Positions 12,983 through 53,926 of a stretch of DNA of 64,000 nt are shown piece by piece (the stretch's first letter is position 1; every line of letters begins with the position of its first letter). A program made the position numbers and the translations under genes. The notes under the pieces were generated by a model. That model saw only the letters and a program-made list of their open reading frames with translations. It was not told the origin of the DNA and searched no databases. The stretch lies in the IMG/VR virus record IMGVR_UViG_3300007345_000033; one strand, written 5' to 3'. Origin of the DNA: a virus.

Positions 12983-13058
12983 GCTAAGATAGCTCAGTTG
13001 GTAGAGCACCTGATTAAAGATCAGGGTGTCGGAGGTTCGATTCCTCCTTTTAGCACCA
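12983..13058 (+). tRNA. tRNA with anticodon loop ttAAAga (formally Phe-AAA; unusual A34)
   Basis: Canonical cloverleaf: acceptor gctaaga/ttttagc, D gctcagttggtagagc, AC stem cctga/tcagg, T ggaggttcgattcctcc, CCA. Positions 34-36 read AAA. Confidence 0.5.
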
Positions 13059-13181
13059 TATTAAAGGAGTCGGGGCAGGATGGTAATGCAGCGGATTGAA
13101 ATTTCATTTGTATAAATAGTAATGTAGGTCACGATGTTGGCGCATCTACCTACTCTAGAAATACAAAGGGAGATTTCCAGC

Positions 13182-13790
13182 ATGAAACTATTTATTTGTC
13201 AATTCTGCGGCAGGGAAACAACTAATCCTGGTGCCAATAAAAAACATGAGATTGGTTGTAGGAATAACCCAAATTCAAAAATTTGTGGCGGTAATAAAAA
13301 AGGGTATGTTCCTTGGAATACTGGAAAAGTGGGTGTACAAACTGCTTGGAATAAGGGTAAACCTGGAACATTTAGAGGTAAGAAACACACAGCAGAAACC
13401 AAAAGAAAGATGTCTGAGAGCAAAAAAGCATTATACGCTACTGGATGGGAGTGTATCGCTGGAAGATGTCCAAAATATGATTATGAGTCCCCTATTGCCG
13501 GAAAGATAAAGGTAGATGGTAGTTGGGAATTGGCATTTTGTGAATTTGCTGATAAAATGCAATTAAACTGGGAAAGAAATAAAAAACGTTTTCCGTACAC
13601 TAAACCAGATGGAACTAAATCTACGTATCAACCAGATTTCTATGTAAAAGAATTAAAGTCTTATATTGAAGTCAAAGGATATGAAACAGATTTAGATAAG
13701 GCTAAATGGGAACATTTTCCCGAAAATCTGATAGTGCTTCGAAAGAAAGAAATCGGTGGGTTGGATGAGTGGTTTGCTAAACCGTCATAG
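13182..13790 (+). CDS. homing-endonuclease-like protein: NUMOD3 motifs + gp4-like PD-(D/E)XK nuclease domain
   Basis: N-terminal Cys pairs (CQFCG...CRNNP) and NUMOD3-like GKKHTAETKRKMSESKK. C-terminus YQPDFYV...YIEVKG (PD...ExK) aligns with ORF 54493..54939. RBS agggag before the Met at 13182. Confidence 0.55.
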   Translation: MKLFICQFCGRETTNPGANKKHEIGCRNNPNSKICGGNKKGYVPWNTGKVGVQTAWNKGKPGTFRGKKHTAETKRKMSESKKALYATGWECIAGRCPKYDYESPIAGKIKVDGSWELAFCEFADKMQLNWERNKKRFPYTKPDGTKSTYQPDFYVKELKSYIEVKGYETDLDKAKWEHFPENLIVLRKKEIGGLDEWFAKPS

Positions 13791-13806
13791 GATTAAAAGT
13801 TCTATC

Positions 13807-13834
13807 GAGGGTTCGAATCCCTCACTCACCGCCA
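13807..13834 (+). other. tRNA 3'-half fragment (T-arm + acceptor 3' strand + CCA)
   Basis: gagggttcgaatccctc + actcacc + g + cca. The upstream partner ggatgagt forms an acceptor only with a bulge. The inferred anticodon loop would be 9 nt. Confidence 0.4.
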
Positions 13835-13841
13835 AGGTTCA

Positions 13842-13869
13842 CTGGGTTCGACTCCCAGCGGCTCCGCCA
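13842..13869 (+). other. tRNA 3'-half fragment (T-arm + acceptor 3' strand + CCA)
   Basis: ctgggttcgactcccag + cggctcc + g + cca, with no adjacent 5' half. A perfectly complementary ggagtcg lies at 13066..13072 upstream of the HEG-like gene. Confidence 0.4.
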
Positions 13870-13874
13870 AAATT

Positions 13875-13968
13875 GGATGATTAACCAGAGCGGCCTCTGG
13901 ACCTGTCTTGAAAACAGTGTGGTCGGGTTAGAAGCCCGATTGGGGATCGACACCTCAATCATCCGCCA
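13875..13968 (+). tRNA. type II tRNA with selC-like architecture, anticodon loop ctTGAaa (Ser-TGA by anticodon)
   Basis: 8-bp acceptor ggatgatt/aatcatcc. 6-bp D-stem with 4-nt loop (ccagag cggc ctctgg). Long variable hairpin cgggttagaagcccg. T-arm tggggatcgacacctca. G73 + CCA. Confidence 0.45.
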
Positions 13969-14056
13969 ACTTCTAAAATAGGAAAATAGATAATGGAAAC
14001 TGGAGATATAATTCTTGTTTTAATTTTAACATCGGCTATTTTCTATATTATGTTTT

Positions 14057-14131
14057 GGAGCACAGGCTGACTGAGTAGGCGGTGGATTGCAAATCCACAT
14101 TAGGTAGGTTTGATTCCTACGTGTTCCTCCA
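14057..14131 (+). tRNA. tRNA-Cys (anticodon GCA)
   Basis: Acceptor ggagcac/gtgttcc. AC stem gtgga/tccac with loop ttGCAaa. T-arm gtaggtttgattcctac. CCA encoded. Confidence 0.6.
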
Positions 14132-14401: not shown

Positions 14402-14478
14402 GCCTGTGTAGTCCAATTGGAAGAGATGCTTGATTTAGATTCAAGAGGTTGTGGGTTCGAATCCCACCATGGGCACCA
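14402..14478 (+). tRNA. tRNA with Leu anticodon TAG but short variable arm
   Basis: Acceptor gcctgtg/catgggc. AC stem cttga/tcaag with loop ttTAGat. T-arm gtgggttcgaatcccac. CCA encoded. 5-nt variable loop. Confidence 0.45.
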
Positions 14479-18189: not shown

Positions 18190-18268
18190 AGCGAATATAG
18201 TCCAACCGGTAGGAGACAACGAACTTAAAATTCGTACAGTGTGGGTTCGAATCCCACTATTCGCACCA
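18190..18268 (+). tRNA. tRNA with Leu anticodon TAA but short variable arm
   Basis: Acceptor gcgaata/tattcgc. 3-bp D-stem as in Leu tRNAs. AC stem acgaa/ttcgt with loop ctTAAaa. T-arm gtgggttcgaatcccac. CCA encoded. Confidence 0.5.
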
Positions 18269-20922: not shown

Positions 20923-21013
20923 AGTCCCTTAGTTTAATGGTAAAACACCCGTCTTATAAGCGGCACCGTCTCCAGATTAGAGAGCGATATGGGTTCGAAT
21001 CCCATAGGGACTA
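20923..21013 (+). tRNA. type II tRNA-like gene, anticodon loop ctTATaa (assignment unclear; TAT or shifted TTA), no encoded CCA
   Basis: Acceptor agtccct/agggact. D gttt/aaac. 4-bp AC stem. About 21-nt variable arm. T atgggttcgaatcccat. Confidence 0.4.
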
Positions 21014-21117
21014 CAAAACAATTAAAAGCGACAGATCGTAACCCAGGTCGCCTACCAAAATACGAAAGAGAAAAATGCATATAACTTGAAATGATTTGTC
21101 AATATAAATAAAGTTGA

Positions 21118-21475: not shown

Positions 21476-22480
21476 AAATTGCGAGGTATAGCTCGCTTGT
21501 CCCATGATCTTCGGGTCATGGGAATAGGGTAAGACTGGTAACAGTCCCAAAGGCAGGTTTCCTATAAACTGCCGCCAGCAATGGTCCTTCTATACAAGCT
21601 CAGAGTGGAGTTGACTCGGTTGATAGCCGAAAGCAACTCGTTGTCAGTAGAATGGCAATAGTGGAGCAAGGTAGAATTGTAGTCCGAAAGGATGTGACCG
21701 GAGCCAATCGGTGAGGTCTAATTGACTGTGGTGGTGAAGCTACGATTAACCAAACTACCGAATCTTACACTCAATGAGTAGTTACTGAGTTTGACCATTA
21801 GCGTGGAAAGGCAAAGTAGCATTACAAGAGTTGAAAGGGTAGGACCTGGAAACTTGAAGTATCGTTTAGTATCCCGCAAGGAGAAAGACAGGTGATGTGT
21901 TGTATTTTGTATCCCAAAAGGATATGAAGCAACTGGAGTGGCACATCACAGTAGGTTCGCAAATTAGCTCATTTGGTAGAGCAAAAGACGCATAATCTTT
22001 AGGTAGTGGGTTCAAATCCTGCATTTGTTTAAAAAGCAAAGTCTACTCCGGTACGTCATTAAAGACGCTTAATACCATACTCGTAAGGGAATATGGTGCA
22101 TTGAAGCTCGCAAGGCGGATGTGTTTGTTTGGAAAGAAAACGTAAACTCTTAGCGGAGTTGAACTGCTCGCAAGGCAGGCGGAAGATTGAAAGACGAGTA
22201 GTGACGTATGACACAGGAAATGCCACCTGTATAAAAAGGCAGCGTTGGAAGATACTGTATTAGTGTTCCACACAATGCAGTGGATACGTAGAGAACGTGG
22301 CTCGCAAGGCTTACGATAATGCTACAAAAGACTTCCATCTTATGCTATAATCTCAGGCTAGGCAAAACTATCTTAAAAGATACACTGTGGGCTAACTAGT
22401 AACGCCGTTGCAGTAAAATGCGAGACGATAACGATTGTAAGTGCAAATCTTACCAGTGTATCTCTTAAGATAGTTTTAAA
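21476..22480 (+). ncRNA. candidate large structured ncRNA (about 1 kb, ORF-free, GNRA/UUCG tetraloop hairpins, repeated gctcgcaaggc motif)
   Basis: No credible ORF in about 1 kb of an otherwise gene-dense phage. Hairpin cccatgatc-UUCG-ggtcatggg at 21500. Multiple c-GCAA-g and GAAA loops. Motif gctcgcaaggc at about 22105, 22160 and 22300. Flanked by tRNAs, with an embedded tRNA-like element. Confidence 0.5.
21958..22028 (+). tRNA. tRNA-like element (anticodon CAT, G33, no CCA) embedded in the structured RNA
   Basis: D gctcatttggtagagc. AC stem aaaga/tcttt with loop cgCATaa. T gtgggttcaaatcctgc. Weak acceptor (6 bp). Possibly a pseudo-tRNA or a structural domain. Confidence 0.35.
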
Positions 22481-43994: not shown

Positions 43995-44385
43995 AAAAAA
44001 CAGTTGATAACTTATAAAAATTCCTTTACTTCTAAACTAAAATTAAATATACTATATAAATAATAAGCGGATTTGATTATCAGATTCTAAAAGTTATTCA
44101 GGACACGGGGGCAGTTCCCGTCGTCTCCACCAGAAGAGTATTGGTTATCAGGGTTGGAATAAACCTGGTGTAATAGATTTTCCAAACGTCCAGTACTCTT
44201 TTGATGGGGACGATTCAGGTTCGACTGGTAATAAGTAAGTTCTCTGTAGAATACGCTATTTAAAAATAAATGCTAACGATAACTTCAAAGCATTTGATTA
44301 CGCCTTAGCTGCGTAATCATTGGGCGGCCACTGCCTCGAAACAGAAGTGTGGCATTATTTCCTAAAATTTTATGAAAGGTTTAAC

Positions 44386-44754
44386 ATGAAAACATTTTTG
44401 ATTGCAACTACTGCATTGGTAGTTTCAACAACAGCAGCCTTGGCTGGTGGAATGCAACCAGGCGTTTGGTCTGGTGAGGCTTTTGCAGAATATGGGGTAA
44501 ATGCCCAAGATGTAACACTTGGAGGCGGTGTTGCTTATGATATCAACTCAGTTAGCTTGTGGACTGAAACTGAACTTCAAGTAGCTCAAGAAGTTGATTT
44601 GACTTTGAGTGATGTTACCTTTGGTGCAGATTATGCAATTCTACCTCAAGTAGATGCGTATATGGCATTTGAGTTTGCTGGTAATCCAGATGCAGCTAAT
44701 GGTCTTGGGGTTGAATATAATGAAACTTCAATTGGCCTTCGCTACGAGTGGTAA
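44386..44754 (+). CDS. secreted small beta-barrel outer-membrane-like protein
   Basis: Signal peptide MKTFLIATTALVVSTTAALA. Alternating hydrophobic pattern. C-terminal ...GLRYEW (terminal aromatic, typical of OM beta-barrels). Terminator ggggagcttcggctcccc at 44762..44779. Confidence 0.45.
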   Translation: MKTFLIATTALVVSTTAALAGGMQPGVWSGEAFAEYGVNAQDVTLGGGVAYDINSVSLWTETELQVAQEVDLTLSDVTFGADYAILPQVDAYMAFEFAGNPDAANGLGVEYNETSIGLRYEW

Positions 44755-53296: not shown

Positions 53297-53926
53297 TTAA
53301 TAAGTCACTAAAGGATCTTTCAATCCACCGCCTTCTATGGTAAACTGAGAATAAGTTATTGAGGTTGCAAGGCGTATTAAATCGCCTTTATCGTTCCATG
53401 CTAATGGCATTTCCAACAAAGAAGAAGGGAATGCTTCGTATAGATTTATCTTTTTAACAATATTTCCGACCTGGTCATATAAAAATATTTGCATGGTACT
53501 TGTGTATTCACTTTTATATTTTGAAACATATTTTGGTATTCTAATTCCGGATTCCGAACCATTAAATTCAAATATAGTTCTCATCCAATCATACCAAAAA
53601 TGTAATAGATCGGCCTTTTTATCTAATAAGATAGAAAAAGTTGTATCGTGATAATATGAATTGAATGGGATCTTTTGGGTTGGACCAAATCCGAATCTTT
53701 GTACTTCAGCGGAAAGTAAAGAAACCCCAGGTATTTTTACTTGATCAATTCTATATCGTAATATGTCATTGGTTACATTAAAGAGGGACTTTTCAGTTCC
53801 ATCATAACTTTCTAGTTTTTTATTTTGTAATATTGGCGGAATTGATAATGCAACCTCAAATGCATGAGGTTTTAAATAGCCATATCCGCTTATATTAGAT
53901 TTAAAATTGTTTAGGTTAAATCCCAT
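53297..53926 (-). CDS. hypothetical protein (gp3-like by position only)
   Basis: 209 aa. Occupies the position of gp3 in the T4 3-2-4 / 53-5 divergent arrangement. No motif verified. Confidence 0.3.
   Translation of the reverse strand: MGFNLNNFKSNISGYGYLKPHAFEVALSIPPILQNKKLESYDGTEKSLFNVTNDILRYRIDQVKIPGVSLLSAEVQRFGFGPTQKIPFNSYYHDTTFSILLDKKADLLHFWYDWMRTIFEFNGSESGIRIPKYVSKYKSEYTSTMQIFLYDQVGNIVKKINLYEAFPSSLLEMPLAWNDKGDLIRLATSITYSQFTIEGGGLKDPLVTY

Follow-up and report, generated by a model that had tools for sequence, protein, structure and literature searches.

The stretch of DNA analysed here, called the window throughout, is the 64,000-nucleotide (nt) IMG/VR virus record IMGVR_UViG_3300007345_000033, whose gene content marks it as part of a T4-like myovirus of lytic type. 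Within a same-strand (+) array of 23 called tRNAs at 11.5–22.5 kb lies a 94-nt gene that very probably encodes a functional serine tRNA with anticodon UGA, tRNA-Ser(UGA). Its predicted cloverleaf is non-canonical, with 8 and 4 base pairs in the acceptor and T stems (8/4) in place of the conventional 7 and 5 (7/5), and with a 6-bp D stem closed by a YGGY tetraloop as in selenocysteine tRNA (tRNA-Sec). On these features the gene belongs to the (8/4) tRNA-Ser of the allo-tRNA class described in 2017 and hence is not new in kind. The gene and its parts are listed below, with the evidence for each; A1 denotes an alignment of close homologs introduced further on.

13875–13968 (+): whole gene, predicted (8/4) tRNA-Ser(UGA), 94 nt including the encoded CCA (Rfam, ARAGORN at -ps95, family covariance models)
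13875–13882 (+): 5′ strand of the acceptor stem, GGAUGAUU, 8 nt, pairing with 13957–13964
13882 (+): U13882, "position 8", base-paired in the 8/4 fold (A1, columns 8:83)
13883–13884 (+): linker AA, 2 nt, from acceptor to D stem (A9 invariant, column 10 at least 70% A in A1)
13885–13900 (+): D arm, 6-bp stem CCAGAG/CUCUGG around the tetraloop CGGC at 13891–13894 (covariation)
13902–13918 (+): anticodon arm, stem CCUGU/ACAGU, loop CUUGAAA at 13907–13913, anticodon UGA at 13909–13911 (direct reading, minimum-free-energy fold, Rfam alignment)
13919–13941 (+): long variable region, 23 nt, with hairpin core UCGGG..CCCGA (minimum-free-energy fold)
13941 (+): U13941, end of the variable region and position 49 in a 7/5 fold (A1, column 67, invariant U)
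13942–13956 (+): T arm, 4-bp stem GGGG/CCUC, 7-nt loop AUCGACA at 13946–13952 (minimum-free-energy fold, Rfam alignment)
13957–13964 (+): 3′ strand of the acceptor stem, AAUCAUCC, pairing with GGAUGAUU
13957 (+): A13957, the contested nucleotide, eighth acceptor pair versus fifth T-stem pair (homolog comparison)
13965–13968 (+): discriminator G73 (13965) and encoded CCA (13966–13968) (direct reading)

Direct reading, the minimum-free-energy (MFE) fold and the alignment to the Rfam tRNA-Sec model agree on the 8-bp acceptor stem (GGAUGAUU/AAUCAUCC) and on the 6-bp D stem with its CGGC tetraloop, the latter also borne out by covariation. The long variable hairpin and G73 emerge from direct reading and the MFE fold, and the serine anticodon in its CUUGAAA loop from direct reading and the Rfam alignment. 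All of these had been named in an original prediction made from the sequence alone, and they stand. The MFE structure is itself the 8/4 cloverleaf (−36 kcal/mol, z = −2.5), with equally good folds in 2 of 200 shuffles, and a single A sits between the D stem and the anticodon stem. The acceptor stem lacks G3:U70, which means no alanine identity. Only 12 nt, CCUCAAUCAUCC (CCUC followed by AAUCAUCC), separate the T loop from G73, so the acceptor/T stack has 12 bp (8/4 or 7/5), the length found in ordinary tRNAs, and not the 13 bp of tRNA-Sec; the "8/5 fold" of the original prediction was thus wrong, and the correct description is a 12-bp, 8/4 branch. The tRNA-Sec-like architecture proposed there holds for the D arm, the acceptor stem of 8 bp and the long variable arm, and lapses for the 13-bp branch and the UCA anticodon.

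The choice between the two 12-bp splits turns on A13957, which can pair with either U13882 or U13941, so a single sequence cannot separate 8/4 from 7/5. We compared four tRNA-Ser(UGA) genes, from the window and from three viral loci anchored on NAMPT. Position 8 pairs with the contested base in every one of them (U-A, G-C, A-U and G-C), the rival fifth T-stem pair is broken in two of these four, and the conventional 7/5 Ser tRNAs of the same loci show the opposite pattern. A single-sequence nhmmer search of 80 NAMPT-anchored loci returned three weak matches only, and an exact 33-nt pattern spanning D arm and anticodon found 0 matches in viral contigs, being too strict given that anticodon stems differ. 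Scanning viral contigs with the pattern CTTGAAAA-N(22-42)-GGGGNTCGANNCCTC yielded at least 120 loci. Among the matches listed, 97 genes are unique; the eighth acceptor pair alone can form in 47, both pairs in 44, the fifth T pair alone in 5 and neither in 1.

For covariation we used alignment A1, comprising 36 unique close homologs that share the candidate's exact layout and in which the candidate's row is free of gaps. The pair 8:83 played no part in the selection of sequences, and at least five of the six D-stem pairs were required. Columns 8 and 83 hold a standard pair in 36/36 sequences (UA 25, AU 8, GC 2, CG 1), with 11 double changes. The competing 7/5 pair, columns 67:83, is standard in 26/36 and broken in 10/36, with no compensatory change. 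Over the whole 8/4 structure, 97.5% of cells are standard pairs, versus 68.6% in shuffles and at most 48% with slid partners. In the D stem, each of the six pairs covaries, with 100% pairing, the inner three covarying in 22–24 of the 36 sequences and always paired, around a tetraloop C-G-G-C that is at least 90% conserved. The variable-arm stem (columns 48–51/63–66) covaries as well, with 97% pairing, and the elbow nucleotides are conserved (GG of the D loop, UCGA of the T loop), as are U33, the anticodon UGA, A37 and CCA in the family.

A covariance model (CM) of the family, applied to all fetched loci, recovered 149 well-formed unique members, a few of them unrelated tRNAs near the CM threshold. 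The eighth acceptor pair alone is possible in 74, both pairs in 64 and the T pair alone in 11. Members with anticodons other than UGA have 4-bp T stems that vary in sequence by inspection (for example GGGC/GCUC, GUGG/CCAC and CUGG/CCAG); the eighth acceptor pair forms in 32/37 of them and the rival pair in 15/37. The covariation seen in the 36 close homologs and the 149 members independently confirms the 8/4 fold proposed in 2017, and its compensatory changes indicate that the candidate gene is under purifying selection on its fold. Anticodons of the 149 are UGA (112, a number enriched by the search pattern), GCU (about 22), CGA (6) and GGA (3), with UCA in 0/149; labels reading "GAG" and "GGU" were artefacts of locating the loop columns in a small alignment (A2), and those rows are UGA or GCU tRNAs. 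In phages, then, these sequences show the 8/4 scaffold carrying every serine anticodon family. The discriminator is G in 119 members, U in 23 and A in 7, hence G or U in 142/149.

The 8/4 type is rare in cellular genomes, where 185,579 bacterial and archaeal species gave 24 matches, mostly on contigs of rumen or gut metagenome-assembled genomes and in several Nocardia, versus the at least 120 in viral contigs. One phage contig with about 30 tRNAs and a transfer-messenger RNA (tmRNA), L192, carries an 8/4 tRNA-Ser(GCU) directly upstream of an 8/4 tRNA-Ser(UGA) (reverse strand, about 2577–2757); the D arm of the homolog there is identical to the candidate's, and ARAGORN misses both genes even at relaxed thresholds. 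The same adjacent Ser(GCU)/Ser(UGA) pair occurs in Nocardia genomes (L202, L214, L219, L221). Two cultured 174-kb phages carry an (8/4) tRNA-Ser(UGA) too, namely Pseudomonas phage Milchi (PQ464597.1, about 72165–72256, complementary strand; L225:1472–1563, 87 bits) and Pseudomonas phage Astolliot (OM982621.1, about 71281–71343). Their GenBank records annotate nothing under the match; of the two, the Milchi record was fetched, and in it the adjoining tRNAs are annotated.

The original prediction had proposed ARAGORN and the Rfam tRNA-Sec model RF01852 as checks, and each answers in two parts. Default ARAGORN misses the gene, and with thresholds lowered to 95% (-ps95) it calls a tRNA-Ser(tga) at exactly 13875–13968. 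RF01852 is the top Rfam model in a permissive local scan (42.8 bits, E = 5e-7), but stays under its gathering score of 47; its alignment shows the 8-bp acceptor stem, the 6-bp D stem with 4-nt loop and a 4-bp T stem, with one model pair deleted. The general tRNA model, RF00005, is also below its gathering score here and is outscored by the tRNA-Sec model. Family models perform differently. R1, a CM built from A1, gives the candidate 83.5 bits and finds exactly one member within the window; R2, from which both the window sequence and L192 were left out, still scores it at 80.9 bits (E about 1e-19), while the window's ordinary tRNAs reach at most 30 bits. Such scores place the gene well beyond chance. 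We also wrote a strict structural scanner of our own (8-2-6-4-6 ... 4-7-4-8) and dropped it as too loose, with 45 matches versus ~30 in shuffles, the window candidate being the sole real one.

Several observations weigh against a functional 8/4 tRNA-Ser(UGA). None of the 25 genes that default ARAGORN calls across the window is the one at 13875–13968, and Rfam at gathering thresholds reports nothing there. Both U8-A and U49-A are possible in this sequence, so that the 8/4 assignment rests on homologs, and the T stem of the UGA members was set by the search pattern and holds no covariation information. The first pair of the anticodon stem is a C·U mismatch, although that pair is also unpaired in 13/36 members of A1, making the mismatch typical of the 8/4 family. 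The T loop starts with A where T54 is usual, and broken tRNA genes adjoin the candidate on its upstream side, a sign that the array may be decaying locally. Three other explanations were weighed. One is a conventional class II tRNA-Ser with a 7-bp acceptor stem, unpaired U8 and A9, a 3-bp D stem, a 10-nt D loop with G18 G19 and a 5-bp T stem UGGGG/CCUCA, whose Sec-like look would be accidental extra complementarity. ARAGORN at its 95% thresholds draws exactly this 7/5 fold, which the original prediction had named as its refutation; in its favour, pairing of U13941 with A13957 is possible, the canonical U stands at position 8 and the GG would fall in the D loop. The family nonetheless rejects the drawing and with it the canonical 7/5 form: position 8 changes together with the contested base (UA, AU, GC, CG) and is always paired in A1, the would-be position 49 is an invariant U mismatched in 10/36, and the three inner D-stem pairs that a 7/5 fold leaves unpaired covary and always pair. 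The low RF00005 score, exceeded by that of the Sec model, argues the same way, and we regard this explanation as highly improbable.

A relative of tRNA-Sec, whether an anticodon-mutated selC, a tRNA inserting selenocysteine or a Ser-derived amino acid at UCA codons, or an integration or recombination remnant, would account for the top Rfam match and for the 8-bp acceptor stem, the 6-bp D stem with tetraloop, the long variable arm and G73. It conflicts with the 12-bp branch, the UGA anticodon, the sub-threshold score and the serine-only anticodons of the family; Mukai et al. (PMC5389517) met the 8/4 class precisely as false positives of the tRNA-Sec model. No SelA-, SelB- or SelD-like product was seen among the 10 largest open reading frames (ORFs; Pfam, PHROGs) and the ORFs of 11–24 kb, a scan of the window that was not exhaustive. 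No duplicated 3′ end of the gene (at most three mismatches) or local repeat beyond generic T-arm similarity was found in the window, hence no att-like repeat, and the phage is of the T4-like lytic type. The "selC-derived remnant" or integration target of the original prediction is rejected on these grounds, for the gene is intact and conserved in a phage family of more than 100 genes with compensatory changes, and the chance that any selC relationship applies is minute. Quite improbable too, in our estimate, is the absence of any translational use, with the gene a decaying pseudogene, a decoy for tRNA-cleaving defence nucleases or a regulatory RNA. The failure of default tRNA finders would fit this, as would the upstream split tRNA-Ser(GCU), endonuclease ORF and D-arm-less tRNA copy, and some allo-tRNA groups (e.g., UAU) are inactive in Escherichia coli and have been proposed to be regulatory (PMC5389517). 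Yet all stems are intact, the score on the independently built R2 is level with those of bona fide members, the compensatory changes among family members show that the fold is under selection, and the anticodon loop (U33, UGA, A37), elbow nucleotides and CCA are all conserved. The limitation of family anticodons to serine implies selection for decoding, and the gene would be the sole intact Ser tRNA of an otherwise near-complete set. The "unusual phage serine tRNA" that the original prediction listed among its possibilities is thus the reading that proved correct.

A functional tRNA-Ser(UGA) would be transcribed together with the rest of the + strand array, and trimmed at its 5′ end by RNase P and at its 3′ end down to the encoded CCA. 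Seryl-tRNA synthetase (SerRS) takes its identity cues from the long variable arm, from G73 and from the first acceptor pairs, and does not read the anticodon. Host SerRS would serylate the candidate through its variable arm, G73, G1-C72, G2-C71 and A3-U70, independently of the anticodon, as in its relatives. Because the acceptor branch is 12 bp rather than 13 bp, we propose EF-Tu rather than SelB as the carrier, as shown for related 8/4 allo-tRNAs in E. coli (PMC5389517). From the literature on such relatives we infer expression and charging; the fold, conservation, anticodon restriction and genomic context were established here. From its anticodon, the tRNA would decode UCA, UCG and probably UCU in phage protein synthesis. 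Among serine codons in 45 ORFs of the window, UCU accounts for 30%, UCA for 22%, AGU for 20%, UCG for 10.5%, UCC for 10% and AGC for 7%; UCN codons make up 63–73% of the phage's serine codons, and a tRNA with anticodon UGA covers most codons for serine. The "decoding oddity" entertained in the original prediction is not needed, as UGA reads ordinary UCN codons.

The Sec-like 8/4 scaffold might further be a phage adaptation instead of a neutral variant, an idea we consider unlikely; in these phages whole serine isoacceptor sets (UGA, GCU, CGA and GGA) share a shape seldom met in cellular genomes. With such a shape, the tRNA might still be charged with serine by every host SerRS and yet evade something that targets ordinary host tRNA-Ser. 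What is evaded might be tRNA-cleaving defence nucleases, or a need for host modifications of the D loop or position 8. If true, the shape would be a sign that viruses have a general strategy for making a tRNA "defence-proof".

The assignment of the window to a T4-like phage draws on gp5-like and gp6-like baseplate proteins, NAMPT, a NadR-like cytidylyltransferase/NUDIX protein and an ATP-dependent DNA ligase (Pfam, PHROGs). The top cultured relatives of the gp6-like protein, about 35% identical, are from Caulobacter phage Cr30, Stenotrophomonas phage DLP_6 and Sinorhizobium phage phiM12. Neither megablast nor blastn, run with the region and with the 12-kb array as queries, revealed a related phage among 50,697 phage records; the only matches were one to a tRNA-Thr and two of 68 nt in Pseudomonas phages. 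The candidate is the only intact Ser tRNA in the window. Like nearly all array genes (about 20) it encodes its CCA, and its 5′ spacer "aaatt" is common to the Gly and Phe genes of the array. Scanning for promoters and terminators near the gene gave results that shuffled sequence equalled. Default ARAGORN calls no tRNA-Ser and no tRNA-Glu anywhere in the window; the set is otherwise nearly complete, and GAA is very frequent (697 in the 45 ORFs).

Directly upstream lies a split tRNA-Ser(GCU) in two pieces, 13066–13098 and 13835–13869 (+), with perfectly complementary acceptor halves (GGAGUCG / CGGCUCC-G-CCA). The pieces match both ends of an intact 7/5 tRNA-Ser(GCU) in a related locus (L151:4745–4835, − strand), and an insert of about 735 nt breaks the gene directly behind the anticodon-loop letters "UUG". 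The insert contains an ORF (13134/13183–13790) that resembles NUMOD3 and PHROG endonucleases and is probably a homing endonuclease; for a group I or group II intron, 13060–14060 gave no Rfam match at E ≤ 10. Overlapping the end of this ORF with its 5′ part, an 80-nt tRNA-like gene at 13755–13834 (+) has G73 and CCA and scores 36.3 bits on the Rfam tRNA model. Its T arm is normal, its variable hairpin is long, and its anticodon arm is near-identical to that of another tRNA-Ser(GCU), in L004 (loop UUGCUAA). With just 7 nt from acceptor stem to anticodon stem, the D arm is missing, and the gene looks as if 12 nt had been lost between CGGU repeats. This makes it a pseudogene or else a tRNA lacking a D arm, and an 18-nt exact pattern taken from it had 0 matches in viral contigs.

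Other members of the array depart from the ordinary as well. At 20923–21014 (+), a 7/5 tRNA with anticodon UAU (AUA, Ile) and A73 has a long variable arm with the hairpin loop CAGAUUA. Similar UAU tRNAs occur at L029:16374, L055:17647, L058:18516, L100:2489, L129:6645, L144:3478, L183:5333 and L203:5841; the fetched phage loci hold 26 unique tRNA(UAU) genes in all, 17 of them long-armed. Among these 17, nine have exactly AGAUUA and most others AGAU(G/A/C)N, versus 0 of the short-armed ones. The variable loop thus contains GAU, the anticodon of the major tRNA-Ile, and may mimic it for IleRS; alternatively, the UAU tRNA could be a Leu-charged class II tRNA like nematode nev-tRNA-Ile(UAU). Our literature search found no paper on long-armed phage tRNA(UAU). 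Both tRNA-Leu genes of the window, at 14402–14478 and 18191–18268 (+), with anticodons UAG and UAA, A73 and lengths of 77–78 nt, are without the long variable arm, and in related phage loci tRNA-Leu genes are normal class II of 85 nt. The tRNA-Phe at 12983–13058 (+; 70 bits on the Rfam tRNA model) has anticodon AAA instead of GAA, and UUU makes up 72% of this phage's Phe codons.

A full-length GOLLD RNA (21892–22359, +; 224.5 bits) stands at the end of the array, with a tRNA-Met-like gene (21958–22030) embedded within it. A permuted tmRNA gene of the two-piece type at 44026–44407 (+), with tag ANDNFKAFDYALAA, is matched by the permuted-tmRNA model as well as by that for alphaproteobacterial tmRNA, a possible pointer to the host group. 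Two kinds of ARAGORN call were set aside. A 95-nt "tRNA-Lys(ttt)" at 53538–53632 (−) has a GC content of 29.5%, mismatches at several stem pairs and no backing from Rfam; it lies inside the ORF 53297–53926 and is probably a false positive. In four related T4-like viral contigs (L058, L032, L020 and L033), genes called "tRNA-SeC(tca)" proved to be ordinary 72-nt tRNAs with UCA anticodons, not Sec-like, and look like opal suppressors.

The finding matters mainly for annotation and as a resource. Because default ARAGORN and the Rfam gathering thresholds miss the gene, this phage seems to be without a serine tRNA though one is present. The same gene type stands unannotated in Milchi and Astolliot and is missed in other large phage tRNA arrays. 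Knowledge of selenocysteine and of the genetic code is left unchanged.

The candidate's place among known tRNAs was set out by Mukai et al. (Nucleic Acids Res 2017; PMC5389517), who found the allo-tRNAs as false positives of a tRNA-Sec CM and defined them by an acceptor branch of 12 bp divided 8/4, a long D stem with tetraloop resembling that of tRNA-Sec, a long variable arm, and either G or U at position 73. The (8/4) tRNA-Ser form a subgroup of these, and the 8/4 class was reported in bacteriophage tRNA gene clusters, proteobacteria and rumen Clostridia; in E. coli, allo-tRNAs of the 8/4 and 9/3 types undergo processing, receive serine and are delivered by EF-Tu (PMC5389517). A 2020 review covers the same class (PMC7609411), and we found no later paper specifically on phage 8/4 tRNA-Ser. 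The gene described here has the 12-bp 8/4 branch, the Sec-like D arm, the long variable arm, G73 and the Ser anticodon of the subgroup. It also has the pyrimidine at position 20 (Y20) of the allo-tRNA group, if the last tetraloop base, C13894, is equated with that position from tRNA-Sec numbering. It resembles the published (8/4) tRNA-Ser in structure throughout, in lying within a phage tRNA cluster and in matching the tRNA-Sec model near threshold. It differs in coming from another, uncultured T4-like phage. Whereas the alphaproteobacterial phages of PMC5389517 combine 8/4 Ser with 8/4 His, an (8/4) tRNA-His partner was ruled out here, the tRNA-His of the window being an ordinary 7/5 tRNA with G-1:C73.

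The non-serine allo-tRNAs (e.g., allo-tRNA-UAU, -GAG and -UAA, Acidobacteria) share the 8/4 or 9/3 scaffold and the serine identity elements. They carry anticodons for other amino acids or stops and act as missense or nonsense suppressors or are inactive RNAs, whereas the anticodon here is cognate for serine, so no recoding is implied. Canonical class II tRNA-Ser of 7/5 type (for example L004:6391–6478 and L024:17709–17798) have in common with the candidate the anticodon loop, the long variable arm, G73, CCA and presumably the synthetase, but leave U8 unpaired and have a D stem of 3–4 bp around a large D loop, and a T stem of 5 bp. With tRNA-Sec (selC; RF01852) the candidate shares the 8-bp acceptor stem, the 6-bp D stem with 4-nt loop, the long variable arm, G73 and, as we propose, serylation by SerRS. 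There, selC has a 5-bp T stem in a 13-bp branch, the anticodon UCA and a dependence on SelA and SelB, and the candidate has a 4-bp T stem in a 12-bp branch and the anticodon UGA.

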